This document shows, piece after piece, positions 12,217 through 40,422 of a stretch of 64,000 nucleotides of DNA. The stretch comes from Escherichia phage FL31. Where the stretch lies: the sequence record PP400782; one strand, 5' to 3'. The notes under the pieces are model-generated. The model did not search any database, was not told the origin of the DNA, and was given only the letters and a program-made list of their open reading frames with translations. A program made the translations under genes and the position numbers. Every line of letters begins with the position of its first letter. Position 1 is the first letter of the stretch.

Positions 12217-12264
12217 TTATTATCCAATGAGAGCATTATACTCTGCTCTCAAGAGTTTGTAAAT
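12217..12264 (-). repeat. PeSL-like early promoter cassette; 48-nt copy A (47/48 identical to 40375-40422)
   Basis: Minus strand ATTTACA-N17-TATAAT with GAGAGCA/TGCTCTC inverted repeat flanking the -10. Confidence 0.6.
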
Positions 12265-12266
12265 CG

Positions 12267-12479
12267 TTATCCGAACTTTTTAGCGCCTTTCCAGCCTTCG
12301 TACATAACTGCGCAAGTCAATAGCACAGCATGTTGGCATTCTTTGTATTTGTAAATCCAGAACCAGCGTAAGAAGTCTTCATCCTCAACACCGTTGAGTT
12401 TCATGTTGGCAAAGAATTCGGCACGTTCTTCACGAAGCTTTTGCGATAACATAGATTCAGGATTCATTTTGTATTCCAC
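12267..12479 (-). CDS. Hypothetical small protein
   Basis: 70 aa ORF. Confidence 0.45.
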   Translation of the reverse strand: MEYKMNPESMLSQKLREERAEFFANMKLNGVEDEDFLRWFWIYKYKECQHAVLLTCAVMYEGWKGAKKFG

Positions 12480-12691
12480 ACCCCATTTTCATCGATGAAC
12501 TTAATCCAGTCATTTACAGACCATTTAGTTGTATCGCCCTTTGGATTAACATTTAAAGTATATAATCCCTGCTTAAAAAGCATTCGTTTGATATTCATAA
12601 TTTCCTCAACTGTAACGATAACATTCGTTAGCTTTACGTTTGGCTTCAGTATGAGAAGTATTATAATCATAATCTTCTTTACTGTAAACAT
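12464..12691 (-). CDS. Hypothetical small protein
   Basis: 75 aa ORF. Confidence 0.45.
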   Translation of the reverse strand: MFTVKKIMIIILLILKPNVKLTNVIVTVEEIMNIKRMLFKQGLYTLNVNPKGDTTKWSVNDWIKFIDENGVWNTK

Positions 12692-12950
12692 CTTTTTTCA
12701 ACTTACGAACTTCTTTGCGGAGTTGTCGATTCATTTCATTCTTGACTTCAGAATCAACGCCTTTCATACGTTTCCATTTATCTGAGCGGAAAATGTTTTC
12801 AACCATGTCTTTGTGGCTAACACCGTCAGGAGCTTTACGTTTACCCATGTAATAAAAATCTTTAGAAGACAAATCTTTACGACGATACATTTTACCCATA
12901 AGTACCTCAGAGATTGATTTCAATGATACGTTTGATATACTGCACATCAC
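12606..12950 (-). CDS. Hypothetical basic protein
   Basis: 114 aa ORF overlapping the previous one in another frame; start uncertain. Confidence 0.4.
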   Translation of the reverse strand: MMCSISNVSLKSISEVLMGKMYRRKDLSSKDFYYMGKRKAPDGVSHKDMVENIFRSDKWKRMKGVDSEVKNEMNRQLRKEVRKLKKDVYSKEDYDYNTSHTEAKRKANECYRYS

Positions 12951-13155
12951 TTACTGAAAGGTCTTTAAGACCAATTGATTCTAAACGTTGTGCAAATGTT
13001 AACATATGGGTGAAGTCCAATTGCGTTTTAGTCATTTGATAAGTGTGAATGCCATTAGCAATTTCAACCTTCAAATCGTTAATGGTGACGAAAATCATTC
13101 GTTCATCATTCATGTTAAGAACTAGAACAACTTTCTTTGAATCTAAACTAATCAT
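12907..13155 (-). CDS. Hypothetical small protein
   Basis: 82 aa ORF. Confidence 0.45.
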   Translation of the reverse strand: MISLDSKKVVLVLNMNDERMIFVTINDLKVEIANGIHTYQMTKTQLDFTHMLTFAQRLESIGLKDLSVSDVQYIKRIIEINL

Positions 13156-13496
13156 GGCTTAATTTCCTTCGCAATTGAACAGAAGATACCACGGTCACAA
13201 AGCATTTCACCAATTTCTGGATATTTGATTGAATGGTACCAAACATCCAGGCTTGAAACTCTGGTTATCTGTACTGCATTACCGTTGACAGAATAGTACT
13301 GGTCAACCTTAATTTCTTTATCTTCAATTGCCATTTTGTTTTCCTCTGTGGTAGATGGTGCTAATCTTAACATATCTATCGAGGATGTAAACTGTTTTAT
13401 GAAAATATTTTCAATTTGGGAGGGGCACAAGGAGATAGTGAAGTGAAGATTCCAATGGATTATATTAGAAATGAGATAAAGAAGACCAGGCGGCAC
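13152..13496 (-). CDS. Hypothetical protein
   Basis: 114 aa ORF; start uncertain. Confidence 0.4.
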   Translation of the reverse strand: MPPGLLYLISNIIHWNLHFTISLCPSQIENIFIKQFTSSIDMLRLAPSTTEENKMAIEDKEIKVDQYYSVNGNAVQITRVSSLDVWYHSIKYPEIGEMLCDRGIFCSIAKEIKP

Positions 13497-13500
13497 CTGG

Positions 13501-13809
13501 TCAATCTTCTATGATATCAAAGTCATATCCTAATGAAATCAAGGACTTTTTAAACTCTGCAATATTCTTTTGTTTCTTATCATTTAAAAATATGACAGGA
13601 TAACGAATATTAAGTGAAGTGAATCCTGCACGTTTAGCAAGAGATACGATTAAAGGACGGTCATATTCAATCTTACCATTATTAGTGAGGACTTTATAAA
13701 ATGTATAAGGAACATTGAGCTCCTTTAAAAGTTTTGTAACAGTATAACATCCTGGACAACGTCCTACTTCTTCAGGGATGCCATAAATTTCAATCTTGTT
13801 GTGTTCCAC
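13501..13809 (-). CDS. nrdH: Glutaredoxin-like protein NrdH
   Basis: 102 aa with CPGC redox motif; adjacent to nrdG/nrdD. Confidence 0.65.
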   Translation of the reverse strand: MEHNKIEIYGIPEEVGRCPGCYTVTKLLKELNVPYTFYKVLTNNGKIEYDRPLIVSLAKRAGFTSLNIRYPVIFLNDKKQKNIAEFKKSLISLGYDFDIIED

Positions 13810-13811
13810 AA

Positions 13812-14024
13812 TTATTCCTTGCCAAGAACAGAATTCAGTTTATTAGTAATTTTGTCCAAACGTTCATTGAATTCGCTGGAGGATAAACCCTTTTCCGGAG
13901 AAATTAAACTAATCACGAAAAATACAACAGTAAAAGGAATAAGAAAAATAGCTCCAACTGCCATAAACGAAAAGAACGTTACAGTTGTAAGAAAATCAGC
14001 TAAACCTTTACGAAATTTATACAT
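13812..14024 (-). CDS. Small membrane protein
   Basis: 70 aa with one long hydrophobic helix (FFSFMAVGAIFLIPFTVVFFVISLI). Confidence 0.45.
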   Translation of the reverse strand: MYKFRKGLADFLTTVTFFSFMAVGAIFLIPFTVVFFVISLISPEKGLSSSEFNERLDKITNKLNSVLGKE

Positions 14025-14134
14025 ATTTACCCTTAATTAACTAAGCATTGATAAGCACTAAACTATATTGCGAATAAAATTCTGGACCAAAACGAAAAAT
14101 CATATCATTTATAGTATCCATAATGTAATTCAAT

Positions 14135-14605
14135 TTAATCATGTTTCCACACCCCATCGGTATTTGACCAAAGTCGCTGATTATCTGATCCTCGCCACAG
14201 TTTTTTGGTCGGAAGATTTTTCTCATACTTCCCATCAATAATAACATCAACATATTTAAGCATTTCTAGTTGTTTAATATCTTCAAACTTATATCCTGTC
14301 CACAACCAAATGCTTTTATTGGGATAAAGATTTTTAATAGTTTGAACCACAGAGTGAATCACATCTCTGTTATCAGGATAGAGAGGGTCTCCTCCGGTTA
14401 TAGTCAATCCTTCTATATAATCATTATTCAAGCATTCAATCAATTGTTCTAGTGTTTCACCAGTGAATGGAATACCATTTCTAGCATTCCATGTTGATTT
14501 ATTATAACACCCTTCGCATTTATGCAAACAACCTGTGACGAAAAGAACGACCCTGCAACCAGGGCCATTCACAAAATCACAAGGATAAAATCTATCATAA
14601 TTCAT
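14135..14605 (-). CDS. nrdG: Anaerobic ribonucleotide reductase activating protein NrdG (radical SAM)
   Basis: 156 aa; CxxxCxxC cluster (CLHKCEGCYN), GGDP motif. Confidence 0.9.
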   Translation of the reverse strand: MNYDRFYPCDFVNGPGCRVVLFVTGCLHKCEGCYNKSTWNARNGIPFTGETLEQLIECLNNDYIEGLTITGGDPLYPDNRDVIHSVVQTIKNLYPNKSIWLWTGYKFEDIKQLEMLKYVDVIIDGKYEKNLPTKKLWRGSDNQRLWSNTDGVWKHD

Positions 14606-16419
14606 TGGTGTTTAACCCTATGCATGATTTCTTTATTTTTACCGAGATTAAATCCACGTTCGTTCGGATTTCCCAAATAACCGCATGTTCTTCTTATGGT
14701 GTTCATCTTTTTAGGATCAGTTTCTCCGCAAACTGAACAAACAAATCCATTTTCAGTAGGAGTCATCTCATGGGTACTTCCACACGTAAAACATTTATCT
14801 ACTGGCATATTAACACCAAAATAATCTAAATGTTGTGCAGCATAATCCCAGACGGCCTCAAGTCCTTTTAAGTTATTTTTCATATCAGGAAGTTCAACAT
14901 AAGAAATGTGACCACCTGTCGCAATGAAATGATATGGCGCTTCACGAGAAATCTTTTCAAACGGAGTAATATTTTCTTCTACTGAAACATGGAAACTATT
15001 AGTGTACCAGCCTTTATCAGTGACATCCTTTACACTTCCATATTTTTCTGTATCAAGTTTACAGAAGCGATAACAAAGGTTTTCAGCAGGAGTCGAATAT
15101 AAACTAAAAGCAAATCCAGTTCTTTCAGTCCACTGTTTAAGATGAGCATTCATTTTAGTTAAAATTTCTTGCCCAATATCGCGACCGACAAGAATATTCA
15201 ATTCGTGAATACCAATGTATCCCAAAGACACTGAACTTCTACCGTTTTTAAATAACTCAATTATGTCGTCATCAGGTTTAAGACGAACCCCGAATGCACC
15301 TTCTTGGTAAAGAATAGGAGCTACAGTTGCTTTAACACCCTTTAAAGAACTAATTCTGCACATCAAGGCTTCAAAACACAGGTCCATTCGCTCATCAAAC
15401 AATTCAGTAAATTTCTGTTCATTGAACTGTGTTCCAATATAAGAATCTAACGCGATACGAGGAAGATTCAGTGTTACAACACCAAGATTATTGCGTCCAT
15501 CAAGAATTTCATTGCCAGTTGAATCTTTCCATACGCTCAAGAAACTACGGCAGCCCATTGGAGAAACTGGAACTGAAGAACCGGTAATAGCTTTATTATT
15601 CTTAGCTGAAATAATATCAGGATACATCCTTTTGCTTGCGCACTCTAAAGCAAGTTGCTTAATGTCGTAATTCGGATCGTCTTTATAAAGATTAACGCCT
15701 TCTTCAACGAACATAACAAGCTTAGGGAAAATAGGAGTTATTCCATCACGACCAAGGCCTTTAATACGATTTTTCAGAATTGCTTTCTGAATCATTCGTT
15801 CAGTCCAGTCAGTTCCTGTTCCAAATGTTATAGTAACAAAAGGAGTTTGACCGTTTGAGCTAAAAAGAGTATTTACTTCATACTCATAAGCTTGAAATGC
15901 GTCATAGACATCTTTTTCTGTTTTGGATTGAGCATAATTCAACGCATCGGCGATTTGCCATTTTTCTGCATCCTCAATATGTTTTGCATAGGTGCGTTTA
16001 ACATAAGGAGAAAGTACTTTATCTACATTAGCAAAAGTCGTTCCGCCATATTGGTGAGAAGCAACCTGTGCAGTAATTTGTGCCATAATTGCAGTAGCAA
16101 CGCCAATTGATTTAGGAGTTTCAATCTGTGCATTACCAAGCTTAAATCCGTTCTCAAGCATTCCTTTTAAATCTACTAAACAGCAATTAGTAAATGGAAG
16201 AGCAGGGGAATAATCAATATCGTGGAAATGGATAATTCCGCTTTCATGTGCTTTCATAATAAAAGACGGGACCATATTTTTGGCAATGTGTTTAGACACA
16301 ATACCAGCCATAAGGTCCCGTTGAGTTGGAAAAACACGAGAATCTTTATTAGCATTCTCGTTTAAAAGGTCTTTATTAGTTTTATTAATCAGTCCTTCAA
16401 TTTCTTTTTCAATTTTCAT
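14602..16419 (-). CDS. nrdD: Anaerobic ribonucleoside-triphosphate reductase NrdD, uninterrupted
   Basis: 605 aa continuous ORF; C-terminal zinc-ribbon CFTCGSTHEM...CSVCG and glycyl radical motif RRTCGYLG. Confidence 0.95.
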   Translation of the reverse strand: MKIEKEIEGLINKTNKDLLNENANKDSRVFPTQRDLMAGIVSKHIAKNMVPSFIMKAHESGIIHFHDIDYSPALPFTNCCLVDLKGMLENGFKLGNAQIETPKSIGVATAIMAQITAQVASHQYGGTTFANVDKVLSPYVKRTYAKHIEDAEKWQIADALNYAQSKTEKDVYDAFQAYEYEVNTLFSSNGQTPFVTITFGTGTDWTERMIQKAILKNRIKGLGRDGITPIFPKLVMFVEEGVNLYKDDPNYDIKQLALECASKRMYPDIISAKNNKAITGSSVPVSPMGCRSFLSVWKDSTGNEILDGRNNLGVVTLNLPRIALDSYIGTQFNEQKFTELFDERMDLCFEALMCRISSLKGVKATVAPILYQEGAFGVRLKPDDDIIELFKNGRSSVSLGYIGIHELNILVGRDIGQEILTKMNAHLKQWTERTGFAFSLYSTPAENLCYRFCKLDTEKYGSVKDVTDKGWYTNSFHVSVEENITPFEKISREAPYHFIATGGHISYVELPDMKNNLKGLEAVWDYAAQHLDYFGVNMPVDKCFTCGSTHEMTPTENGFVCSVCGETDPKKMNTIRRTCGYLGNPNERGFNLGKNKEIMHRVKHQ

Positions 16420-16889
16420 TTTAAACTCTTTCTAAGCTGCTTCTTAAATGAAGTTATTAACTGTGTTTTAGTATCAGATTCATTATATTCAAATCCTCTT
16501 TGAAGCATCTCGGTCATCATTTCCTCTTTACCTAGTCTTGAGAACTCTTTAGTTTTGTCTGGAACAAAATTAGGATGGATATTATTATCAGAATAATCTT
16601 GTTTCAAATAAGCAAGAAGAGCTTCAAGCCATTCGAGGTAGTCGACATCACGACCTTTAAGACCAGAACGGTTGAACTTATGCTTCATTTGGCCTTCTGC
16701 TGCGTTGCACAGATTACAGAGTAATCCACGAACTCTACCGGCTTTTGGCCCGTTTAACTCGTGGTCGTGGTCAAGATGGTTACCTTGAACATCAGGGTCT
16801 AATTCACGGTGGCAAATAGGACACTTACCGTTCTGTGCATCATAAAATTTTTGTTTTTCTTCTTTATATTTTGCGCCTGATAATAACAT
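16416..16889 (-). CDS. 49: Endonuclease VII (Holliday junction resolvase) gp49
   Basis: 157 aa; MLLSGAKYKEEKQKFYDAQNGKCPICHRELD...HLDHDHELNGPKAG matches recalled T4 endo VII. Confidence 0.95.
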   Translation of the reverse strand: MLLSGAKYKEEKQKFYDAQNGKCPICHRELDPDVQGNHLDHDHELNGPKAGRVRGLLCNLCNAAEGQMKHKFNRSGLKGRDVDYLEWLEALLAYLKQDYSDNNIHPNFVPDKTKEFSRLGKEEMMTEMLQRGFEYNESDTKTQLITSFKKQLRKSLK

Positions 16890-16924
16890 GATAAACCCTT
16901 ACCTTAAATAGATAAGGGTATTTA

Positions 16925-17350
16925 TTAACTTAAACGTCTTTCTAAATATTCAATGTATTCTGCGGCTGCTTGCATCAGGTTACCTTCATAGCCGTCGTTA
17001 TTTTCTTGTCCGGCTAATTTAGCTAATGCATAAGAAATTCGTTCACCTTCGAATTCGCCAAGTTTACTACCTAGCACATCCGCAATATCAGCCGAATCAA
17101 TTTCTTCGAGTTCATCTATTGAATGTGATTCCCAGAAGCACCAAAGAGAAGTATCACGGTCATAGATGCAAAGTTTCTCACCAGTGTTCAACATCACTTC
17201 AATAATGCCATGGTCGCCATAACCATCTTCGGTCGTAGTACCAATTACCTTGATGATTGTTCCTTTCTTTAATTCAGGAAACTTGACTTGTAGTTCTTCA
17301 TCTTCTTTAACAATCTTGAACCATTTACCACGTGTGTCAGAAATATTCAT
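16925..17350 (-). CDS. Hypothetical acidic protein (position of T4 pin; identity unverified)
   Basis: ATG at 17350 with GAGGA RBS; the longer track ORF to 17488 may be an N-terminal over-extension. Confidence 0.4.
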   Translation of the reverse strand: MNISDTRGKWFKIVKEDEELQVKFPELKKGTIIKVIGTTTEDGYGDHGIIEVMLNTGEKLCIYDRDTSLWCFWESHSIDELEEIDSADIADVLGSKLGEFEGERISYALAKLAGQENNDGYEGNLMQAAAEYIEYLERRLS

Positions 17351-17650
17351 ATCAATATCCTCTATAAAAGTTGCGATGCGTGCGTTTCGCTTTGCGAAGC
17401 TGACGTTTAGTTGGTCGAACCGTAAATGGTTGTCCAGAGAAAAAATTCGGATCGGTTTTAATAAGCAAATACCAATCATGTTTGCCATTTTTTAATAAAC
17501 GGTACAATAATTTAACTTGCATAATAATCTCTTCCCATTTCCAAATCAATCATATCGTTTACTGTAGGTTCATCATAACACGTTTCTTCGTCGTTGTAAA
17601 CTGTTTCGACGTCTGGCTCGACAGTTTCCCATCGAGCCGAATACCATGGC

Positions 17651-19928: not shown

Positions 19929-19947
19929 AATATTTTCCTCTCGTTAA

Positions 19948-19985
19948 GATAGAAAGATTATACTCCAACCATCCTTGGTTGTACA
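19948..19985 (-). promoter_or_regulatory. PeSL-like early promoter cassette
   Basis: Minus strand TGTACA-N17-TATAAT with CAACCA/TGGTTG inverted repeat in the spacer. Confidence 0.5.
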
Positions 19986-21571: not shown

Positions 21572-21589
21572 GTTTTACCTCCAGTAGTT

Positions 21590-23347: not shown

Positions 23348-23385
23348 GATAGGTCTATAATAACATATCCTAAAAGCGTGTACAC
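23348..23385 (-). promoter_or_regulatory. PeSL-like early promoter cassette
   Basis: Minus strand GTACAC...TATTAT-AGACCTATCAAAAC. Confidence 0.5.
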
Positions 23386-23414
23386 TACTTTTTAAAAATA
23401 TTTTGACCCCCTAA

Positions 23415-23430
23415 AGGGCCCGAAGGCCCT
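23415..23430 (-). other. UUCG-tetraloop hairpin just downstream of the nucleotidyltransferase-like gene
   Basis: agggcccgaaggccct; mRNA GGGCC-UUCG-GGCCC. Confidence 0.45.
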
Positions 23431-23432
23431 TA

Positions 23433-24422
23433 TCATTTATAGTACGAATTGTGGTTTTCTAAGTAGACTTGTTCAAGGAAGTCATCCCAGAAACTCATAT
23501 CTACTTTTTGTTGCATACCGTTCTTAGCGGCTTGTTCTGATGCTTTTTCAACTTGGTCGACGATATCTTCTAGGAATTCTTGTACAGTTTTAAACGTATG
23601 TTTACCAAGCTTAACATCGAGAATAAATGGAGCATCTTGAAGTGGGTAAACCAGGTCACCGGTTTTGTAAATTTCCAATAGTTGGAGTCCACCACGACAT
23701 GCATGACTCAATGCTTTCCAGTCAATACCTTCGTTGGCTTCCGCCTTACGAGCACGTTCGCCATAGTTCTCTTCCAGTTTAACCAGGATGGCATTGAACT
23801 CTTTATTGGTTAACGTATCTTGGAATTTACGGTCTAACAGATTATAGAATGTTTGCTTACCTGTTTTCTCGTTTTCGGTTTCAACCCATGAAGCAAATTC
23901 ACCTACAGGCAGAACATTCTTCATATGTGATAAACGAATTACTGCACCATTATCAAAGTATTGTCCCCATTCATTAGAACGTTTAAGGGCTTGACGAAGA
24001 ACAGCCAGTCGAGAACCCTTGACACCGTATTTAGAAGCTTGCTTACGGACATACCCTAAATAAGATTTCATGTTAGTGGTATAGAAACGAGACCTGTTAT
24101 CTTGAATATACTTCCATACATCAGGCAAATCAGATTTAACTACTAGACTTTGTGGAGTGTGAAGCATATCTAATGCGACGGTTTCACCATCCGCAGCTAG
24201 TTTAAAGAAATATTTGAGACTATACAACTCATGGTCCACGTCGTCTTTTGTGTTCTTAGAAGATGTGTTATTCGTGTTCTTGCTCATGTGTTCTTTAACG
24301 TTACCGGTCAAGATATCACGAGCATGAGGGACATAAATTTCTTTAAAATCGACGTCAGATTCAGGAGTAGACGTTCCATAAAGGTGGCTACCAAAGTAGC
24401 CTTTCATAATTGTTTTCATCAT
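23433..24422 (-). CDS. Nucleotidyltransferase-fold (pol-beta superfamily) protein
   Basis: N-terminal GSHLYGTSTPESDVDF fits G[GS]x9-13[DE]h[DE]h; 329 aa. Confidence 0.45.
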   Translation of the reverse strand: MMKTIMKGYFGSHLYGTSTPESDVDFKEIYVPHARDILTGNVKEHMSKNTNNTSSKNTKDDVDHELYSLKYFFKLAADGETVALDMLHTPQSLVVKSDLPDVWKYIQDNRSRFYTTNMKSYLGYVRKQASKYGVKGSRLAVLRQALKRSNEWGQYFDNGAVIRLSHMKNVLPVGEFASWVETENEKTGKQTFYNLLDRKFQDTLTNKEFNAILVKLEENYGERARKAEANEGIDWKALSHACRGGLQLLEIYKTGDLVYPLQDAPFILDVKLGKHTFKTVQEFLEDIVDQVEKASEQAAKNGMQQKVDMSFWDDFLEQVYLENHNSYYK

Positions 24423-25739: not shown

Positions 25740-25778
25740 GGTAGGACTACTATAACATAATCCTACCAAGATGTAAAC
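25740..25778 (-). promoter_or_regulatory. PeSL-like early promoter cassette
   Basis: ggtaggactactataacataatcctacc followed by gtaaac (minus-strand GTTTAC -35); GGTAGGA/TCCTACC arms. Confidence 0.5.
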
Positions 25779-26227: not shown

Positions 26228-26242
26228 TGATAGATGCCAAAA

Positions 26243-26266
26243 AGCCCCAACCATAAGGAAGGGGCT
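26243..26266 (-). terminator. Terminator-like hairpin followed by U-run, immediately upstream of a promoter cassette
   Basis: agccccaaccataaggaaggggct preceded on plus strand by aaaa. Confidence 0.5.
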
Positions 26267-26272
26267 AGTAAA

Positions 26273-29155: not shown

Positions 29156-29614
29156 CTAGATTTTAATCACTGCTTTAGAAGCTTTTCCTGGTAGTCGTTT
29201 ACTGTTAATAATAGCCATTCTGCATTGAAGAGTCTTCATTTTGAATGCCGGATTTTCGCGACAAACTGTAAGTCCTAACCAAAGATTTCCGTCAGTTATT
29301 TCTAAACGGCCCGGGCGATATTCGACACCTTCGTCAAAATCTTCATCAACATCTGGACGTGCCGGCATTGATAAAAATTCTGCAACTTCTTTAACATGAT
29401 TTTTTACTTTATGAAATAATTCAAAAACGTAATTCTCATCTATTTCTCTCTGGATGGCACGATCTAAGAGATGCTGAGAATACTTGATATGAAAGCCTGG
29501 TAGTCCAAGAGACTTTGCAGCATCTTTTATACCGGCATTTATTTTGCGGAACTCCGTTTCAAAGATTCGACGGAGTTTATTACGGCGGATAAAAACTTCC
29601 GAATTGATAGTCAT
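29156..29614 (-). CDS. regB: Endoribonuclease RegB
   Basis: ATG at 29614 with GAGGAG RBS; MTINSEVFIRRNKLRR... resembles recalled T4 RegB. Confidence 0.8.
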   Translation of the reverse strand: MTINSEVFIRRNKLRRIFETEFRKINAGIKDAAKSLGLPGFHIKYSQHLLDRAIQREIDENYVFELFHKVKNHVKEVAEFLSMPARPDVDEDFDEGVEYRPGRLEITDGNLWLGLTVCRENPAFKMKTLQCRMAIINSKRLPGKASKAVIKI

Positions 29615-29625
29615 TTTGATTTCTC

Positions 29626-29671
29626 CTCTAGTTGACAAGTCTATAGTAACACAACTAGAGGAGAAGTAAAC
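29626..29671 (-). promoter_or_regulatory. PeSL-like early promoter with perfect 10-bp inverted repeat; drives regB
   Basis: Minus strand GTTTAC-TTCTCCTCTAGTTGTGT-TACTAT; arms CCTCTAGTTG/CAACTAGAGG, downstream arm includes the regB Shine-Dalgarno. Confidence 0.6.
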
Positions 29672-31697: not shown

Positions 31698-32000
31698 TTA
31701 TTTATCTTTAATTACTTTAGCTGCTTCGATAGCCGCTTGCTGAAGGTCATCCATAGACATACCGAATTTAGAAGCAAAGTTATCAATTTTCTTTTCGACA
31801 GCATTCAAAGGCTTGGCCTGTTTACCTTCATTAGCGCCAGGAAGAGCGAGAATACGCTCTTTGTCAATATAAAGGCTTACAAGTTTCTTACGGTCTTTAT
31901 CGGACAAATCATGAAATGAATGGGCCTTTTTATTTATAGCGGCTTCTAATTTACCTGCACTCACTCGCGCTTCAGTAATAAATTCTTGATATGTTTTCAT
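31698..32000 (-). CDS. ipII: Internal protein II-like (capsid targeting sequence)
   Basis: 100 aa; N-terminal MKTYQEFITEA capsid-targeting motif. Confidence 0.7.
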   Translation of the reverse strand: MKTYQEFITEARVSAGKLEAAINKKAHSFHDLSDKDRKKLVSLYIDKERILALPGANEGKQAKPLNAVEKKIDNFASKFGMSMDDLQQAAIEAAKVIKDK

Positions 32001-32041
32001 ATGTTTCCTTTAAATGTAAATAGGTCTGAGTATTAGCTTTA

Positions 32042-32620
32042 TTAGGAATTACGGGCTGCATTAGCAACGGCGTAAGCGTACTGAACATTAGCGTCTTTAA
32101 ACGTGCCCTTAGTTGTATCTAGTTCTACCTTAAAACCGCCTTTAGCCATAACATCGGCAAATTCTTTACGGAAAGCCATTGCATCAAGACCTTTCCATGA
32201 TGATTTATGCTTGGCAAATTCAAGACCTGCGAAGTTGACAGCTTTAGCTAATTTATTATCAATGACCCATTTACCTGCTTTAGGCACAAACTTCGGACCT
32301 TTTTGTTTAGAGAACAGTTTTAAATTCCAGCGACGAAGGTCACTGTCGGCTTTAACAAAAGCTGCGTCTAAGTTACTAGCAACAACATCTTCAATATGAG
32401 CAAATTTAAGTCCGTCAACTTCAATATTTAGATCATTACGCCAGCGTAGTCCTTCCCAAGCGAAGGCTTTAAAGTCGGAAGCCTTTGTAGCTAAGTACCG
32501 TTCAATAGGAGCAGTTTTAGGGTCAAAGCCGTTTCCGCCACGATAAGTCCACTCGTCTTTATTAATGCCTTGAGCTTTTCCTGCAAAGGCCTCGGCGATA
32601 AATTCTTTATATGTTTTCAT
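32042..32620 (-). CDS. ipIII: Internal protein III-like
   Basis: 192 aa; MKTYKEFIAEA N-terminus; size matches T4 IPIII. Confidence 0.7.
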   Translation of the reverse strand: MKTYKEFIAEAFAGKAQGINKDEWTYRGGNGFDPKTAPIERYLATKASDFKAFAWEGLRWRNDLNIEVDGLKFAHIEDVVASNLDAAFVKADSDLRRWNLKLFSKQKGPKFVPKAGKWVIDNKLAKAVNFAGLEFAKHKSSWKGLDAMAFRKEFADVMAKGGFKVELDTTKGTFKDANVQYAYAVANAARNS

Positions 32621-32645
32621 TTTGTTCCTATTGATTTAATTTATG

Positions 32646-32960
32646 TTATTCTTTAGGGAAGTTTTTAGAGTATGCGTCATAAAGTTTATTACCGATGCGA
32701 CGGAAGACTTTAGCTGCAAAACGGTTTTCAGGGTTTTTAATCATGATTTGCATCATGTAAGTTCCTGCATCCGAAAGAGCTTCTTCATAGTACCCATTAA
32801 TTTCTTTAAGAGTCCTACGTTTACCACCAGGACCATCAACAGTAATTTTCCATTTACCAGTAGAAGTGCGGCTCGGTGGTTCAACTTGTTCAATCCAAAT
32901 ATAACCACCTTCAACGCGTTGGTTGGCGGATTCTGCAATAAATTCTTTATACGTTTTCAT
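32646..32960 (-). CDS. Internal-protein-like protein (CTS-bearing)
   Basis: MKTYKEFIAES N-terminus, 104 aa. Confidence 0.6.
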   Translation of the reverse strand: MKTYKEFIAESANQRVEGGYIWIEQVEPPSRTSTGKWKITVDGPGGKRRTLKEINGYYEEALSDAGTYMMQIMIKNPENRFAAKVFRRIGNKLYDAYSKNFPKE

Positions 32961-33023
32961 TTTTGTTTCCTTGTTTGTTTTGATAGAGTAATTATACCAT
33001 ATTAATACTTAAGCGTAAACAAT

Positions 33024-33284
33024 TTAAGCTTTACCGTCAGAAATAATTCCGAAGTTGTTAAAATCGTATCCAATATCGTCAACATCTACTTTAGGACTTG
33101 CTACAACATAAGCAATTTCACTACGTTTTGCATAGGTGTTGATTTCTTTACCATCGCCACCTAAGAAAGAATACCCATTACGTTTTAATGAGCCAAAGTC
33201 TTCCGCATCACCAATGAAAGCTTTAACTTTAAATTTAGGACCTTTGACATCTGTTTCAATGATAAATTCTTGATACATTTTCAT
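33024..33284 (-). CDS. Internal-protein-like protein (CTS-bearing)
   Basis: MKMYQEFIIET N-terminus, 86 aa. Confidence 0.6.
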   Translation of the reverse strand: MKMYQEFIIETDVKGPKFKVKAFIGDAEDFGSLKRNGYSFLGGDGKEINTYAKRSEIAYVVASPKVDVDDIGYDFNNFGIISDGKA

Positions 33285-33290
33285 TTTTCC

Positions 33291-33704
33291 TTAGTAAATT
33301 GATTTACCATAGTATTTGTACCAAGTAGGACGCTGAGCAATTTTTTCATCTAAGCGTGCTTGACTTATCGCAATGGACGCTTCGGACGGGACATAATTAT
33401 TACGAAATTCTACAGGAATATCGGAAATATCCTGGACAGTCGTGTCCTTGATTTTGAAACCACGTTTCAAACATTCGGCTATTAGCTCGATTTGACGTAA
33501 ACGTAAAAATTCGAGTTTGTCGTAAAAGAATGTTACGTGACCTGTGCCTAAGATAAATGTTGGAGAGATTTTAAAATCCTTTACACGTTTACCGTTTTGA
33601 ACATGTTTACGGACTGCACCAAATACGCGTGGTAATTCACGATACTCAGCCATAAGATGTTGGTCGGTCAGTTCAGAAACAAGTGTTAAATTGATACGGG
33701 TCAT
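33291..33704 (-). CDS. denV: Endonuclease V (pyrimidine dimer DNA glycosylase) DenV
   Basis: ATG at 33704; [35 protein letters not shown]... matches recalled T4 DenV. Confidence 0.9.
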
Positions 33705-33709
33705 AATTT

Positions 33710-33761
33710 CCTCCAAGTAGTTGATGAATGTATAGTATCAAAGTCCTTGGAGGAAGTAAAC
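33710..33761 (-). promoter_or_regulatory. PeSL-like early promoter with 8-bp inverted repeat, upstream of denV
   Basis: Minus strand GTTTAC...TACTAT; arms CCTCCAAG/CTTGGAGG. Confidence 0.55.
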
Positions 33762-33762
33762 A

Positions 33763-34044
33763 CTATTTTTCTGAAGCGCCTGAAATATATTTTTCAAGAC
33801 GCTGTTTCATCAACGAGCCGTTCTTAGCGATTTCTTCCGGTTTATCGCACATACGCAACAATGCTTCAAGCTTAACGATATCACTGGTGCGCTCAAATTT
33901 GCGAGTATCTATCTTACTAGCAAGTTCAGAAATACGTGCTAATAGACTTTCGGCTTCAACCAAAGCTGCACCTAGCTTAGTTGCAAATGTGTCAGTAGCT
34001 TCGTTAAGAATAGATTCCGATAAAAATTCACTATATGTTTTCAT
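33763..34044 (-). CDS. Internal-protein-like protein (CTS-bearing)
   Basis: ATG at 34044 gives [11 protein letters not shown]...; overlaps lysozyme stop (ATGA). Confidence 0.55.
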
Positions 34045-34529
34045 ATATACGCTTTCCAAGTTCCTGTTTTAAATGTTGAGATTACGCGTTTCGCGCGATT
34101 AGGTGTCTGACGATACCATTTAGATTGGGCTAGATTTACTGCCGCTTCGTCCCAACGTTTCTGTTGAAGCATACGAAGAGAATTAGTAAAACCGGCGACG
34201 CCTGCTACACCCATTTGGAAGACCATATTGACCAATGCACAACGACGAACCGCATCTAAAAAATCATATACCGGTTTAAGTTTAGCATTACCCAAGATTC
34301 CGCGAACGGCTTTATCAACGTCTTCATTAAATAGCTTTTCAGCCTCATCAAGGGTAATTGTACCGTTGCATTTACGACCGATCATTCTGTCAAGTTCAGC
34401 TTTAGCTACGGCTAAAGACGGGTTCTTTGTTACCAAATGGCCTATGCCAATCGTCCAAAAGCCTTCAGTGTCTTTGTATAAAGTCAGTCTAAGACCTTCG
34501 TCATTACGAAGCATTTCAAATATATTCAT
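34041..34529 (-). CDS. e: Lysozyme (endolysin) e
   Basis: ATG at 34529; [32 protein letters not shown]... matches recalled T4 lysozyme. Confidence 0.95.
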
Positions 34530-34563
34530 AATACCTCCCACGTTTATAGGAGGTATTTATTAC

Positions 34564-35037: not shown

Positions 35038-35417
35038 TCGGTGATAAAACGTTCAACTTCATTATTCTTGGCTTTTATCTTGTCTTTACGTTCCTGTAAA
35101 CTACTTTTAACAAGATTAATAATGATGCCTACAGTACCTCCACCAATAATACCACCAATAATACTTACGATAGTAGATGCTAATAAGATAGCGATAATAT
35201 CTAGTATAGCAAAGGCACTTACTTTAGTACTAAAAAACCACACTGACGGTACAAATATAATCCATCCTGTTATCCATTGACACTTATTGAAAAACTTTTC
35301 AAGCTCAGCTTGAGTTGTTCGTATTACTTCATCGATAGGTTGATATCCATTAATGTATCTGTTCACGATAATACCTGCTGGCTGGTTGATTTTAAATTCT
35401 TGGCAAATATGTTTCAC
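35019..35417 (-). CDS. Membrane protein
   Basis: 132 aa with hydrophobic segments (GGIIGGGTVGIIINLV). Confidence 0.5.
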   Translation of the reverse strand: MKHICQEFKINQPAGIIVNRYINGYQPIDEVIRTTQAELEKFFNKCQWITGWIIFVPSVWFFSTKVSAFAILDIIAILLASTIVSIIGGIIGGGTVGIIINLVKSSLQERKDKIKAKNNEVERFITECRNLR

Positions 35418-35499
35418 TAAGTAGGATGGACATCCTGTCCAATCTACTGAATAATACGAAATACCTTCGTTGCATTAGACCAATATGTTTTGTTAATCA

Positions 35500-36186
35500 T
35501 TACCAGCCTTCCATAGGGAATTCCAGATAAACTTGAGCGTTGACACGAATTTCATTGGTAATCTTTTTAACTCGGTCTGTATTACGAGATACACGTCCAA
35601 ACCAACGCCATCCGTTACTAATTGCACGAGAACCAGTGTGCCATGTTTGCCAATCAAATTGAAGAAGAGTACGGTCTGGAGCTTCCCATTTCTCTAGTTC
35701 GCCTTTTTCGATTTTTTCGAGGACTTCTTTGTGCCACTGGCGATAGATAAGTTCGCCATCAGGAATCTGACTGAACTCTGCAGTTCCTGTTGCAAAATGA
35801 GTAGGACACACATCAGCGTTAACAAGACCAAGAATATGTTCAGACAAATAGCGAGGATTGTCATAGTCAGGTTGTCCTGCAGTAATAAAGTGTTGACCAA
35901 CTGGAATATCAGGGCGTGGAACATCGTCATGGTGATATCCAGGAATAGCAGGGTACCAGCCAGGCATCAGCATGTGGACTCGTGAATCAAATACAACCTG
36001 GTCGGTGTTCCAATCATCCGGCAAGTTCATGATGAAGCTGCGAGTAATAGGACCGCCGTTATTATAAGCAAATTCTAAACTACAGTTGAAGAACATAGGC
36101 TCGTTCTTGATTTTATCATTAGAAATACCGCCGGCAAAACCACCTACTGCACGAGCTTGACTATTAAACACTTTAGAACTATTCAT
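35500..36186 (-). CDS. Hypothetical protein
   Basis: 228 aa ORF, W/H/D-rich, no motif recognised. Confidence 0.55.
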   Translation of the reverse strand: MNSSKVFNSQARAVGGFAGGISNDKIKNEPMFFNCSLEFAYNNGGPITRSFIMNLPDDWNTDQVVFDSRVHMLMPGWYPAIPGYHHDDVPRPDIPVGQHFITAGQPDYDNPRYLSEHILGLVNADVCPTHFATGTAEFSQIPDGELIYRQWHKEVLEKIEKGELEKWEAPDRTLLQFDWQTWHTGSRAISNGWRWFGRVSRNTDRVKKITNEIRVNAQVYLEFPMEGW

Positions 36187-36187
36187 A

Positions 36188-36493
36188 TTATTTTCCTCGA
36201 CATTCTTTAATGAAATTTTCTAGATTGGTAGATTCAATAGCTTTTTTACGAGCTTCTGCGTGTTCTTCTTCGGTCAATTTATGTTTATAATTGACCCAGA
36301 CATTATGGTCGAAACTAGTCGTGGCATATAATAACAAAGCTCCGACGAATAATAAAAACGGTGATAAGAATATACAACCAGGCACACCATCCATACTGTA
36401 AGCCTTTTGTAATACTGCAACAGAAAGAGTTGCGTAAAAAAGTGATGCAAATATTGTTAAAAGACCAATTCGGTTGGTTTCGCCTAATTTCAT
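36188..36493 (-). CDS. Small membrane protein
   Basis: 101 aa, two hydrophobic helices; GAGGAG RBS. Confidence 0.5.
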   Translation of the reverse strand: MKLGETNRIGLLTIFASLFYATLSVAVLQKAYSMDGVPGCIFLSPFLLFVGALLLYATTSFDHNVWVNYKHKLTEEEHAEARKKAIESTNLENFIKECRGK

Positions 36494-36512
36494 AATATTC
36501 TCCTCATGTTTT

Positions 36513-36552
36513 GGTAGGACTACTATAACATAGTCCTATAATTGTGTAAACA
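36513..36552 (-). promoter_or_regulatory. PeSL-like early promoter cassette
   Basis: ggtaggactactataacatagtcctata + gtaaaca; TAGGACTA/TAGTCCTA arms around the -10. Confidence 0.55.
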
Positions 36553-36563
36553 GTTTTGCGAAA

Positions 36564-37520
36564 TTATTTGAAAGGTTTTACCATATGGAAATTTTGTTTG
36601 AAACGTTTGACGTAATCGTCATGTCCTAAGCTTTGGTACATACTTACTACTTTGCTGTAGTTTTCCCAGGCGTATTCACGGAACCAACCGGAGGTGATGC
36701 TTGTACAGACCTTTTCCAATGCCGTCATAAAACTGGCTTCAGGGTTAATTTTAAAGTCATTAGGAATCTGAGAACGTTCTAATGCTAATACACATGATTC
36801 TTCATATACACCGGCCAATTTGACCATTTCCGGTAATGATTCGAACTTCTCGCGTGAGGTCATGACTTCAGAACCATCTTTCATGTAAAATGTATACGCT
36901 GGACGGTCTGTTAGTGCAATGGCTTCATGAATAGTATCATGGTCATATGTATAGATGTCATCTTTAAAGAATGCGCTTTTAGAAGTGTCAAGAACCGGGT
37001 GAGCATAATTCAAGGTTTCTTTCTGGCGTTTCAGCATAATTTCAGTAAGTTCATCGTTCAGTGTAACACCTTTACCACGAAGATACTGAATATGGTTCAT
37101 AGTCTTTAAAAAGAATGGATTATTTTTCTTGAAACGATGAGACATCTTAATTGCAAGACACATCTCAGGAGTTGCCCAGTAAAACCCGTTAAAACGATCT
37201 TTAGTCAAATTTTTCTTGGCGTATTTTAAAAGGTCATAAGAAGACGTGAAATCTTCAGGAGTGAGTTCACCGACTAATTCACGGACATTAGTGATTGCCG
37301 GAACAATATATGCTTCAAAATGAGTTTCGCGTCCATTATGGAAGCATTTGAAAACTTGGACATCAGGGTTATCTTGGTGAACATATACACCCATCATTTG
37401 ATTTTTGAATGCATTCCAAGAACCTTGGTCCGCAATAAAGTCCCAATCACTATTTTTAATAGCGCTAGAATCAATAAGACCGTGATAGTGAAGTGCACGA
37501 GAACCAATAACTAACATCAT
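36564..37520 (-). CDS. Hypothetical protein
   Basis: 318 aa ORF. Confidence 0.55.
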   Translation of the reverse strand: MMLVIGSRALHYHGLIDSSAIKNSDWDFIADQGSWNAFKNQMMGVYVHQDNPDVQVFKCFHNGRETHFEAYIVPAITNVRELVGELTPEDFTSSYDLLKYAKKNLTKDRFNGFYWATPEMCLAIKMSHRFKKNNPFFLKTMNHIQYLRGKGVTLNDELTEIMLKRQKETLNYAHPVLDTSKSAFFKDDIYTYDHDTIHEAIALTDRPAYTFYMKDGSEVMTSREKFESLPEMVKLAGVYEESCVLALERSQIPNDFKINPEASFMTALEKVCTSITSGWFREYAWENYSKVVSMYQSLGHDDYVKRFKQNFHMVKPFK

Positions 37521-37548
37521 AATATTTTCCTCGGATTAATTCATTAAC

Positions 37549-37800
37549 TTAAATTTCACGACATGCGATATTATATTCATCCCAGAGGTCATCGTGTGAA
37601 GCCTCTACTAATGGAACGATTGTACCATTTATGTCTTCATTATAAGGGCAAATTGTACAATGTGCATCTTCGAATCGGATGCCTTTGTGTTCAGATTTTT
37701 TATAACGCATATCGAATATCTTTGCAAACTTTTCACGAGTAATGGTTTTACCAACCACTTCGGTTCCGATACTTTCGTAATAAATCATTGTGGACTCCAT
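37549..37800 (-). CDS. Hypothetical small protein
   Basis: 83 aa ORF. Confidence 0.5.
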   Translation of the reverse strand: MESTMIYYESIGTEVVGKTITREKFAKIFDMRYKKSEHKGIRFEDAHCTICPYNEDINGTIVPLVEASHDDLWDEYNIACREI

Positions 37801-37807
37801 TTAATTT

Positions 37808-37846
37808 GATAGGACTACTATAACATAGCCCTATCTTGTTGTAAAC
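37808..37846 (-). promoter_or_regulatory. PeSL-like early promoter cassette
   Basis: gataggactactataacatagccctatc + gtaaac. Confidence 0.55.
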
Positions 37847-37851
37847 TGTTT

Positions 37852-38049
37852 TTAGCAAGAATAACTAGATGATACCCAGCCTTGAACAGTAATACTATTG
37901 TGGGATAATGAGATCGCGTCCTGGAGATTCAGACCTGCGTTATCTTCAATCCATAATGTAACTTCTTCGCGTTCTTCTGTTGCAATTTGGAACAGGTTTT
38001 CTAGAGCAGCTACTGCGGTACGTACAGCACAATCTAATTCACGAGACAT
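37852..38049 (-). CDS. Small protein, WVSSSxxC family paralogue C
   Basis: 65 aa ending ...QGWVSSSYSC. Confidence 0.5.
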   Translation of the reverse strand: MSRELDCAVRTAVAALENLFQIATEEREEVTLWIEDNAGLNLQDAISLSHNSITVQGWVSSSYSC

Positions 38050-38058
38050 ATGGTTTCC

Positions 38059-38331
38059 TTAGCAAGTGTGAGAAGATGCAACCCAACCACCAGTTTCGAG
38101 GCTCAGGTTGTAGTCATATTGGTAAACGTCCGCCCATTCAGCATAGCCGTTTTTTGTACAACGTTCAAGATCGGCTTTAAGATGTCCGGGTGAATGATAG
38201 GTTCCACCCATACCATAAGCTGGGTACAAGTTGAATGTTGTGTTTTGTTTATCAGCAATTTCTTTGGCAGCCTCAATAGCTGCATAGATTTTTGCTACAG
38301 CTTCGGCCAGTTCGGTTTGTTCTTTAGACAT
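38059..38331 (-). CDS. Small protein, WVSSSxxC family paralogue B
   Basis: 90 aa ending ...GGWVASSHTC; MSKE N-terminus. Confidence 0.5.
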   Translation of the reverse strand: MSKEQTELAEAVAKIYAAIEAAKEIADKQNTTFNLYPAYGMGGTYHSPGHLKADLERCTKNGYAEWADVYQYDYNLSLETGGWVASSHTC

Positions 38332-38340
38332 AATGATTCC

Positions 38341-38646
38341 TTAGCACAACGCAGAAGACGAAACCCAAGCACCTTCAGTAATAACGTATCCATTACCTTC
38401 ACGCTTAACATCGCCGCCATTATTTTCAATTTCATCTTTCATCCACTGGGATACGATTTCACCCTTAGGATAATAAGTACGACCGCTACCATAATCACCT
38501 ACAGAAAATGATACGGCATATTGGTCTGCGATCTTTGTTGCTTCTTCTTCGATACGTTCAGCTTGATTCAGAAGTTTATAAATTGCATCTGAAGCGGATT
38601 TGGCATCATTAAACTCTGGTACTTTAATTTCAATAATCTTACTCAT
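38341..38646 (-). CDS. Small protein, WVSSSxxC family paralogue A
   Basis: 101 aa ending ...GAWVSSSALC; MSK N-terminus. Confidence 0.5.
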   Translation of the reverse strand: MSKIIEIKVPEFNDAKSASDAIYKLLNQAERIEEEATKIADQYAVSFSVGDYGSGRTYYPKGEIVSQWMKDEIENNGGDVKREGNGYVITEGAWVSSSALC

Positions 38647-38744
38647 TTTCTACATTCCTTAATAAAGTTTTCGATTGTTTCATTTTCACGTCTAGCTAGG
38701 AGTTCATTATAACTAATCATTTGAGAAGCGTAAACAGCATAATT

Positions 38745-39167
38745 TCAGTTGAGGCTTTTGCATCTTATTTCCTTAACGAATTCCATAGCTTCTTCATATT
38801 CATACTTTTTAACAGCTTCATCATACTGAGCTTGGGCTTTTGCGCACTGAACTTTCCATTCTCTTAATCTGGCTCTGTGATGACGTCCTTGGTACCAATA
38901 TCCCATCCAGTTAATAGGCATTAATAAAAACGGTATAATAAGTGGTGCGACGAACATTAATGAAAATGCTGCATCAGACGATATAACTTCACTAGAATCT
39001 AAAACAGCTCCTATAATCATAAAGATTAAAAATGCTAAAGCTAAAATAGGGCCAAATAATACTTCATTTGGGATTAATTTACGCTTGTATTCATACGCCC
39101 AGGGCTTAATTGGCATGTATAGGGTTGGCTTTGACATATTCTCTACATTCCATAATAAATTGCTCAA
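38745..39167 (-). CDS. Membrane protein
   Basis: 140 aa with TM helices; basic C-terminus. Confidence 0.5.
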   Translation of the reverse strand: MSNLLWNVENMSKPTLYMPIKPWAYEYKRKLIPNEVLFGPILALAFLIFMIIGAVLDSSEVISSDAAFSLMFVAPLIIPFLLMPINWMGYWYQGRHHRARLREWKVQCAKAQAQYDEAVKKYEYEEAMEFVKEIRCKSLN

Positions 39168-39729
39168 GGATTAAATTGTTAGTGAAATTAGGACTAACAA
39201 CCATAGTTTCATAAAGCGCATCAATAGCACTTAAAGCATCAGCTCTTTTAAGCAAAGGCTTGCCTTCATACATAGTTTCAGAATCGACGATTAACGTAAA
39301 GTAATATTTTTTATTATCGACTAGAACTTCTGTATCGATATAAAACATATTAGACCTTAAAAGCTTATCTCTAAAACCATAATAATCTTCAGAGCGTTCG
39401 CTGATATATTCCCATTCAGTGTTTAAACAACAAACAGACCATGTAGGAGCAACGAAATCAGTGAATCTAATATCATGGTCTGCAACTAGTTTAGCAATAG
39501 CTCCGATATCATGAATCATAATACCTGGGGCTAATAAAGATTTTCTGTTATGGCTAGCCGTTTTCTCGGTGGTCTCATAAGAAGCCGACCAGTACCATTT
39601 ACGACCGGTTGCGGCATATCGTAATGAATCAACTAAAGACGTAGGTGGATTTACCTTATTTCGGAACTCTTCGAACATTGAGTCAATATCATTATTTTGG
39701 TTTCGCATGTTAACTCCTTTATTATCCAA
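39106..39729 (-). CDS. Hypothetical protein
   Basis: 207 aa ORF. Confidence 0.5.
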   Translation of the reverse strand: MDNKGVNMRNQNNDIDSMFEEFRNKVNPPTSLVDSLRYAATGRKWYWSASYETTEKTASHNRKSLLAPGIMIHDIGAIAKLVADHDIRFTDFVAPTWSVCCLNTEWEYISERSEDYYGFRDKLLRSNMFYIDTEVLVDNKKYYFTLIVDSETMYEGKPLLKRADALSAIDALYETMVVSPNFTNNLILEQFIMECREYVKANPIHAN

Positions 39730-39757
39730 AAGGAGGACCGGAGTCCTCCGTATTATT

Positions 39758-40351
39758 TTATTTCAAAGAGTTAATATATTCTTGTACATCAGCAGAAGTG
39801 GTTTCGACACCGACCGGAGTGCCATTGAATGTTTCGACACGAGTCAGAGTGTCTTCGATATCAACCTTAGTCAGTGCAGCGATTTCAATTACATCATCGG
39901 CCGTAGAGATACCAAGGGCATTGGCTGCTCGAGTTTCACGAATGTATTCGAGTTTGATTGCCAGGTTCTGACGAGCATCGTCAAGTTCAACCACCTTACG
40001 AGCAATTTCAATTCGCATAGCGGCATACCCGTCAGCTTTTGTATTAAGTTGTTCGGCAGTTCGACGATACAGAAGACCAAGCTTAGCATGCATGGTAACA
40101 TCTTGTCCTTCGGCCAGGAGCTTACGAATTTCACGTTCCTTAGAAGCGGCTTGCTTGTTCTTTTCATTAACAAGTTCGCGAATACGTTTTTCTTCATTAA
40201 TAGATTTAACAGAAGCCGTTTTTAGTTCTTTGATTTGGGTAATCAACTTATCTGCAGCTGCGTTATACTGTTCTTCAACAGTCAGATTTTTAGCCATAGC
40301 AGTACCCAGTTTAGTGCGGATGAATTCAACAAGTTTCTTCAGTGTGTTCAT
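39758..40351 (-). CDS. Coiled-coil protein, possibly PspA/IM30-like
   Basis: ATG at 40351; long heptad-like K/E/A-rich helices. Confidence 0.35.
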
Positions 40352-40374
40352 ATTATTACCTTTCAATTGGTGGT

Positions 40375-40422
40375 TTATTATCCAACGAGAGCATTATACT
40401 CTGCTCTCAAGAGTTTGTAAAT
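40375..40422 (-). repeat. PeSL-like early promoter cassette; 48-nt copy B (47/48 identical to 12217-12264)
   Basis: ttattatccaacgagagcattatactctgctctcaagagtttgtaaat. Confidence 0.6.

Follow-up and report, generated by a model that had tools for sequence, protein, structure and literature searches.

The 64,000-nt stretch of the genome of Escherichia phage FL31 analyzed here (record PP400782; hereafter the window) carries two nearly identical promoter cassettes 28 kb apart, each with a hairpin around its -10 hexamer. We read them, with a probability of about 0.8, as two separate sigma-70-dependent early promoters of an RB69-like phage of the T4 family, belonging to the promoter-plus-hairpin family called promoter-early stem-loops (PeSLs). 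Copy 1 (12216..12264, minus strand) is the early promoter cassette of gene 55.2, and copy 2 (40374..40422, minus strand) that of gene e.6. The window is 95-99% identical to, and colinear with, RB69-like phages (genus Mosigvirus, Tevenvirinae), and nearly all genes of this region lie on the minus strand.

Two early promoter cassettes

A first-pass annotation of the window had reported two 48-nt direct repeats with a single T-to-C change, reading on the minus strand as promoters with GAGAGCA/TGCTCTC arms around the -10. Both observations are borne out. The 48-mer occurs on the plus strand as an exact match at 12217-12264 and, with one mismatch, at 40375-40422; 100 dinucleotide shuffles gave no match. 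The repeat finder sets its length at 49 nt (12216-12264 and 40374-40422, direct orientation, 98% identical, 28,158 nt apart), with 48 of the 49 positions equal and an unbroken identical run of 36 nt. The flanks of the two copies differ at once on either side, and a blastn-short scan revealed no further copy of the cassette within the window. The single difference, T12228 against C40386 on the plus strand (A against G on the sense strand), is located 7 nt past the -10 and, by standard promoter geometry, would be the start nucleotide itself.

On the minus strand, each copy reads TTTACA-N17-TATAAT, which agrees with the sigma-70 consensus at 11 of the 12 positions and has a 17-nt spacer. The -35 and -10 hexamers are found at 12258..12263 and 12235..12240 in copy 1 and at 40416..40421 and 40393..40398 in copy 2. 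Both cassettes are intergenic. Copy 1, which covers about -36 to +13, is bounded by the stop codon of the 55.3 homologue (12267-12269), 3 nt upstream of the -35, and by the Shine-Dalgarno sequence GAGGAAAA (12202-12209) and ATG (12197) of gene 55.2 (11865..12197, minus strand, 110 aa, PHROG 1475). Copy 2 lies between the frd.3 stop codon (40422-40424), which abuts its -35, and the ATG (40351) of gene e.6 (39758..40351, minus strand, 197 aa, PHROG 1203). Both promoters are situated 30-40 nt upstream of the Shine-Dalgarno sequence and start codon of the gene that they drive.

The same two sites have been predicted as early promoters in RB69, namely Pe:42515 for 55.2 and Pe:72069 for e.6 (Nolan et al. 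2006, PMC1524935, Additional file 3). Copy 2 is 100% identical to RB69 72007-72055, which overlaps the published Pe:72069. The RB69 early promoters of that study and the cassettes described here have a common T4-like consensus, with xTTTAC at the -35, TATAAT at the -10 and a C-rich stretch from -3 to -1. Together with a third RB69 prediction, Pe:165022, they occupy the same loci as the cassette family, and the e.6 sequence is identical. RB69's own 55.2 copy, however, has diverged (6 of 49 positions) and has a low score of 8.9. No mention of a hairpin, stem-loop or palindrome was found in the text of Nolan et al., and the three-locus family was not seen there. Among the records listed, at least 59 carry copy 2 with 100% identity, and 65 carry it with at least 99%. 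The copy 1 cassette is identical in phage G2285, and a 131-nt query (12170-12300) containing this cassette with both of its junctions is at least 99% identical in 16 records.

PeSLs were defined in phages RB49 and phi1, where the stem-loops mostly lie between the -35 and -10 hexamers or overlap the -10. They are placed between an upstream stop codon and a downstream Shine-Dalgarno sequence and ATG, recur many times in hyperplastic regions and are located at the points where close relatives differ by an insertion, deletion or replacement. In vivo, one PeSL stem-loop was about as effective a transcription terminator as rrnB T1 (Arbiol et al. 2010, PMC2839356). The concept has since been extended to T4/PST and KVP40/nt-1 (Comeau et al. 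2014, PMC4122927). Both copies in the window resemble these elements in their sigma-70-like early promoter with a spacer of ~17 nt, in the stable stem-loop overlapping the -10 and in their intergenic position from an upstream stop codon to a downstream Shine-Dalgarno sequence and start codon. The motif is likewise repeated in hyperplastic regions, with 19 early promoters between 12 and 45 kb and a third copy at ndd in relatives. A breakpoint between close relatives falls at copy 1, where a module containing RB69ORF075c (hereafter ORF075c) starts at the -35, while copy 2 is colinear in relatives.

There are also differences. The phages for which PeSLs have been described are RB49/phi1, T4/PST and KVP40/nt-1, and RB69-like phages are not among them. 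The stems found here are not of the G-tract/C-tract type and are not followed by a U-run, and the two copies are 28 kb apart instead of flanking a single open reading frame (ORF). The promoter activity of these copies is predicted from their sequence. Upstream of the -35, copy 2 has the A-rich tract TTAAAAAATA, whereas copy 1 has CGGATAACG, which is coding sequence and a stop codon. Judged on their sequence, both copies agree with PeSLs in every feature that could be compared, apart from the AT-rich tract of copy 1. Since repeated early promoters are expected in a genome of the T4 family and these two sites have already been predicted in RB69, the repeat as first posed matters little. The assignment does extend the PeSL concept to RB69-like phages.

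Directly downstream of the predicted start, the 12-nt leader UUGGAUAAUAAA (12216-12227 and 40374-40385) forms a conserved transcript start. It resembles the UAA-triplet RNA AAUAAUAAUAA, which was selected in vitro by RB69 RegA (Uzan and Miller review). This leader could be a RegA-type operator, or merely an A/U-rich leader.

The hairpin around the -10 hexamer

The hairpin of copy 1 (12228..12251, minus strand) consists of the arms TGAGAGCA and TGCTCTCA around the 8-nt loop GAGTATAA, and its 3' arm ends on the predicted +1 (A, 12228). Copy 2 has the same arms (40386..40409, minus strand), with a G at 40386 as predicted +1. The 8-bp stem of copy 1, with its outer T-A pair, is weakened in copy 2 to 7 bp plus a T-G pair. 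In both copies, the loop together with the 3' arm's first base contains the -10. The minimum free energy of the RNA is -13.8 kcal/mol for copy 1 (z -3.6) and -12.6 kcal/mol for copy 2 (z -3.75).

Comparative evidence indicates that a stem enclosing the -10 is maintained across genera. In an ungapped alignment of 12 homologous sequences from at least four genera, 91.7% of the cells are paired, a share that drops to 35-51% on sliding the 3' partners, and five of the eight stem pairs show changes on both sides. The stem of the window copies is GAGAGC/GCTCTC at both 55.2 and e.6. At the 55.2 site, it is GAGAGA/TCTCTC in the Mosigvirus phages RB69, JK42 and FP43, with one-step intermediate stems in mar005P1 and NicPhage of the same genus. 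It is GGGACC/GGTCCC in JS98 (Dhakavirus), GAGGAC/GTCCTC in the Klebsiella phage HMGUkp2 and GGGTCA/TGACCC in TH22 (Gaprivervirus). At the e.6 site, the stem is GAGGAC/GTCCTC in JS98 and GGGAAC/GTTCCC in pEC-M719.

Intercistronic C(UUCG)G hairpins are known in T4. At the 55.3/55.2 site of T4 (positions 195-250 of the T4 excerpt), no promoter is present; the site has a UUCG hairpin and a run of five T, followed by the leader GGATAATAAAAT as in the window. Position and leader are thus common to both phages, whereas T4 has a tetraloop, a T-run and no promoter, and the window has an 8-nt loop holding the -10. The fold energy of the T4 hairpin is unremarkable (z -0.36), and its relevance lies in its position and in the common leader. 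A hairpin at this site is thus older than the promoter and separable from it, the promoter being optional where the place of the hairpin is conserved.

Hairpins are not confined to the two copies. Among 19 intergenic minus-strand early promoters examined between 12 and 45 kb, which include several repeat families, nine enclose the -10 in a strong hairpin (-11.7 to -18.3 kcal/mol, z -3.2 to -7.4), and several others have a partial one. The sense RNA folds better than the antisense RNA at 15 of the 19, with summed energies of -213.9 against -182.5 kcal/mol and 33 against 19 G-U pairs. This bias is a weak sign that the hairpins act in the sense transcript and not in the DNA.

This bears on two other explanations of the inverted repeat. 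Rather than an RNA hairpin, it could be a DNA operator for a dimeric, lineage-specific regulator of phage or host origin that would switch this subset of early promoters. The palindrome is centred on the -10, and its arms are the same at three loci of one genome but different between genera, which would fit co-evolution with a binding protein. Other early promoters of the same genome, however, have unrelated arms, T4 has an unrelated UUCG hairpin in the same place, and the arm sequence varies freely while pairing is kept. With the G-T positions and the fold energies also favoring the sense strand, we regard an operator as highly improbable. Alternatively, the hairpin could be a functionless, self-perpetuating quasi-palindrome, kept by template switching during replication independently of the promoter. 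Template switching can produce apparently compensatory changes in one step, and whole-loop inversions at the neighboring ORF075c promoter show that events of this type do occur at these hairpins. This explanation is barely credible given that the same intergenic site keeps a hairpin across at least five genera with unrelated stems, even where there is no promoter, and that hairpins are over-represented, about half of the examined early promoters having one, with z as low as -7. The sense-strand bias and the terminator activity of a PeSL stem-loop (Arbiol 2010, PMC2839356) argue in the same direction.

The picture that we favor, that of two independent PeSL-type early promoters, would work as follows. 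Host RNA polymerase would fire both promoters independently, directly after infection, giving leftward 55.2 and e.6 units. Each cassette extends from the upstream stop codon over the -35 (TTTACA), the 17-nt spacer and the -10 (TATAAT) to about +13. In the 8-bp stem, the spacer is paired with the bases that separate the -10 from the start site, placing the -10 in the loop. Transcription would begin with the A or G that directly follows the stem on its 3' side. Transcripts of the cassette's own promoter would for that reason be free of the hairpin, and only RNA reading through from upstream would carry it, where it could attenuate, punctuate or stabilize the upstream message. For a specific role in attenuating or punctuating read-through RNA, which is suggested by analogy with the RB49 PeSL and with the T4 hairpin at the same site, we see slightly less than an even chance. 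The near-identity of the copies would go back to old copying or gene conversion through the recombination-proficient replication of T4-type phages, followed by conservation and possibly by occasional conversion.

Several points weigh against this interpretation. The hairpin is not followed by a U-run (its tail is AUUGGAUAAU) and the terminator scan flags neither copy, which makes classical intrinsic termination doubtful. Copy 1 does not have the upstream AT-rich tract that is usual in PeSLs and in T4 early promoters. The 12 aligned stem sequences are kin, so that the shuffle statistics overstate their independence, and covariation in the stem of a quasi-palindrome can arise from one-step template switching without selection on structure. 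The start sites (about 12228 A and 40386 G), the strength of the promoters and whatever activity the hairpin has as a terminator or attenuator are inferred. Finally, the direction and timing of the copying between loci, described below, rest on a handful of genomes per genus. Rfam covariance models gave no family at the cassettes, their only matches in the window being two tRNAs at 42.7-43.0 kb.

The interval between the copies and exchange between loci

The first-pass annotation had also proposed that recombination between the repeats could delete or invert the intervening 28 kb in a subpopulation, and had called for a comparison with sister genomes. The junctions expected of a deletion (55.2 leader, cassette, end of frd.3) and of the reciprocal circle (e.6 leader, cassette, end of 55.3) were built, and 50,697 phage records were searched with them. 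Each half was matched in 162 related records, and neither the deletion junction nor the circle junction was found in any of the 162. Seven loci from IMG/VR and metagenomes that carry the core show it in the context of ndd, 55.2 or e.6 only, without a junction. Over this interval, more than 130 relatives keep the same gene order (colinearity); it contains nrdG, nrdD, gene 49 (endonuclease VII), PinA, thymidine kinase (tk), RegB, DenV and lysozyme e. In T4, gene 49 and e are needed for packaging and lysis, and their loss is not tolerated; a deletion including both would not be viable. Direct repeats, moreover, cannot invert the interval between them, which disposes of the proposed inversion.

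Length and direct orientation (48 of 49 positions equal, with 36 nt in one unbroken run) do make the copies conceivable as a working recombination substrate that yields the 28-kb deletion and a circle in a biologically relevant subpopulation. Nearby PeSLs are known to recombine into mini-circles, one species of which occurs in roughly 1 in 10^5 virions; these published circles, at 0.4-1.4 kb, fall well short of 28 kb (Arbiol et al. 2010, PMC2839356). Together with the missing junctions, the normal contexts of all seven loci, the colinear relatives and the gene content of the interval, this renders such a substrate quite improbable, although rare, non-viable deletion or circle molecules could occur in a stock. 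Nothing in the sequences compared shows that the copies rearrange the 28 kb between them.

The cassette has a third locus. Its core TGTACAAACTCTTGAGAGCAGAGTATAATGCTCTCA is also present upstream of ndd in the CEV1 contig, and a copy at ndd, a locus beyond the window, was found in 152 of 160 Mosigvirus records. Two genome-size metagenome contigs each carry an identical 27-nt core at ndd and at e.6, and a scan of IMG/VR with the exact 36-mer matched two contigs, too small a number to compare. Two stretches of RB69, 11.4-13 kb and 165.15-165.95 kb, show srd/modA and class-A promoters and do not include the third copy. Across the 160 Mosigvirus records containing the element, both the 55.2 and the e.6 site are occupied, and the 55.2 site has a hairpin promoter in several other genera as well. 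For the assembly or engineering of such phages, this means 49-nt near-identical repeats at three distant loci.

Outside Mosigvirus, similar sharing between loci is seen. In Gaprivervirus, the ndd promoter of EAWsc9 and the 55.2 promoter of TH22 have the stem GGGGTCA in common. The motB promoter of the Tequatrovirus pSs-1 equals the 55.2 promoter of the Dhakavirus JS98 over 37 nt. The Mosigvirus e.6 promoter (Pe.6) differs from the JS98 55.2 promoter (P55.2) at 5 of 36 positions, and from its positional orthologue, JS98 Pe.6, at 11 of 36. The e.6 promoter of T2, with its spacer of 12 nt, no longer has the 5' arm, and the regions upstream of e.6 in Jiaodavirus and Karamvirus are without the cassette, indicating that the e.6 site is not universally occupied. 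Stem and cassette sequences thus follow the lineage more than the locus, which argues for copying or conversion between loci and supports a view of the cassettes as portable joints for gene gain and loss. As all three loci are occupied throughout Mosigvirus, the copying would be old rather than specific to the isolate, and we infer that cassettes were copied or converted between loci before the radiation of this genus. Of the recent cassette transposition suggested by the first-pass annotation, the movement between loci survives in this older form, while the recency does not. Signs of a transposable or miniature inverted-repeat element were looked for at the two copies; there are no terminal inverted repeats, the inverted repeat being internal around the -10, and no target-site duplication is common to the flanks (ggttat|...|cgttat against ggtgg|...|tatttt).

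At the edge of copy 1, genes have been gained or lost. Compared with RB69, the window is without ~296 bp comprising ORF075c and its own hairpin promoter (P075c), with the homology break in the -35 of P55.2. The remaining Mosigvirus rows listed for the 131-nt query match in two pieces spanning about 420-433 nt, which implies an insertion at this -35. In most Mosigvirus relatives, a module of roughly 300 bp (ORF075c and hairpin promoter) is located exactly there. The P55.2 core of these ORF075c-bearing genomes is often equal to that of Pe.6, and the -35 is degraded (TATACA, TGCACA, CGCACA or TGTACA). JS98, HMGUkp2, T4 and TH22 are without ORF075c, like the window, and JS98 has TTTACA directly after the 55.3 stop codon. 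With the outgroups lacking the gene, the arrangement of the window is most simply ancestral, and the ORF075c module would be an insertion at the cassette edge.

The same data speak to the possibility of a recent event in this isolate, in which the e.6 cassette was transposed or converted into the 55.2 site, deleting ORF075c. P55.2 and Pe.6 differ at 6 of 49 positions in RB69 and at 1 of 49 in the window, ORF075c is missing exactly at the cassette edge, and the window-type junction occurs in just 16 records. Against this, the P55.2 cassette of G2285 is identical, and the 16 records are at least 99% identical over the whole 131-nt query. The ORF075c-bearing phages HX01, Ec2-ASingh and LF82-3 have the Pe.6 core, with the -35 alone differing. 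Considering also the JS98 arrangement and the sequence upstream of the -35, which is not that expected of a hybrid between P55.2 and P075c, a recent event appears very improbable. A recent deletion of ORF075c by crossover between the -35 regions of P55.2 and P075c was rejected as an origin of the window arrangement, since 4 of 11 junction bases differ. A duplication of gene plus promoter, with ORF075c as a paralogue of Frd.3, was likewise rejected for want of BLASTP similarity, the shared TATTTTTTAA being the A-rich tract upstream of the -35.

Over the 33 kb compared between the window and G2285, 5 of 26 homology breakpoints fall in promoter cassettes, which cover 4.6% of the sequence (binomial P about 0.006), an enrichment that is partly confounded by the cassettes being intergenic. 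With respect to RB69, the window is also without ~184 bp of RB69ORF072c (at 11562-11564) and ~324 bp with RB69ORF082c (at 13800-13823). Both are differences of one ORF each, as is usual in hyperplastic regions.

The ORF075c promoter (3706-3752 of the RB69 excerpt), which the window does not have, has a loop carrying the -10 that is inverted among isolates while the arms remain fixed. RB69 has GATAGGAAGA-TAATAACATG-TCTTCC and JK42 has GATAGGAAG-TCATGTTATTA-TCTTCC; in NicPhage and LF82-3, the loop reads TAACAC and GTGTTA, respectively, and SF was also compared. This looks like template switching or inversion at short inverted repeats, and would turn the -10 on or off. A broader idea is that hairpin-embedded early promoters of T-even phages form dispersed families (here ndd, 55.2 and e.6) that ongoing gene conversion keeps identical within a genome and whose short arms mediate inversion of the -10 loop. 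We consider it unlikely; if true, loop inversion would heritably switch individual accessory genes on and off.

Other hairpin promoters and features of the window

The commonest other class of hairpin promoter has GATAGGACTA / TGTTA / TAGTCCTATC around TATAGT (44261..44289, minus strand; repeat families D1-D3). Similar sites are located at 25749-25777, 36522-36550 and 37817-37845. A further site resembling this TATAGT class, 43932-43960, has a weak, partial hairpin (-5.6 kcal/mol, z -1.2).

Two other early promoters in the window are built in a different way. Upstream of regB (29643..29670, minus strand), the spacer TCTCCTCTAGTTG pairs with the regB Shine-Dalgarno sequence CAACTAGAGGAGA in a 13-bp hairpin (-20.5 kcal/mol over 29605-29670). 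The promoter upstream of denV (33732-33760) is of the same design, with 10 bp between TTCCTCCAAG and CTTGGAGGAA (-16.7 kcal/mol over 33720-33760). In both, the Shine-Dalgarno sequence is within the 3' arm, so that transcripts reading through would mask the ribosome-binding site and transcripts from the local promoter would expose it. The T4 genes e, soc, 49 and I-TevI also have a promoter inside a hairpin. There, the long read-through RNA contains both arms and the RNA from the internal promoter, which is late or middle, is without the 5' arm; it is the 3' arm that hides the ribosome-binding site. The regB and denV promoters fit this T4 design. The two cassettes resemble it in having the promoter within the hairpin; their Shine-Dalgarno sequence, however, is outside the stem.

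Similar G+C-rich hairpins, some with a TTCG loop, occur as intergenic pairs at 1768-1804 and 41322-41358, at 26234-26267 and 42013-42046, and at 23410-23437 and 63772-63799. Some of these are placed directly upstream of early promoters, such as 23410-23437 before the promoter at 23357-23384, which corresponds to the upstream geometry of PeSLs.

Six genes open with nearly the same ~50 nt, encoding MKTYQEFI(T/A)E (31969-34063 and 44570-44620; repeat families D4/D5). We take this peptide to be the capsid-targeting leader of T4 internal proteins, and the array would then presumably consist of tandem internal-protein-like genes. One unit of the array, of about 308 nt (32624-32931), is absent from G2285. 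An ORF of 238 aa for an HNH-type endonuclease (6043-6759, plus strand) lies on the strand opposite to its neighbors and overlaps the end of a 562-aa ORF (6756-8444), which we take from its sequence to be gene 46. The HNH-type ORF contains two copies of a zinc-finger-like motif, CPHCG...RWHFDNCK, has repeats at 6406-6482 and 6670-6746, and is probably a free-standing homing endonuclease.

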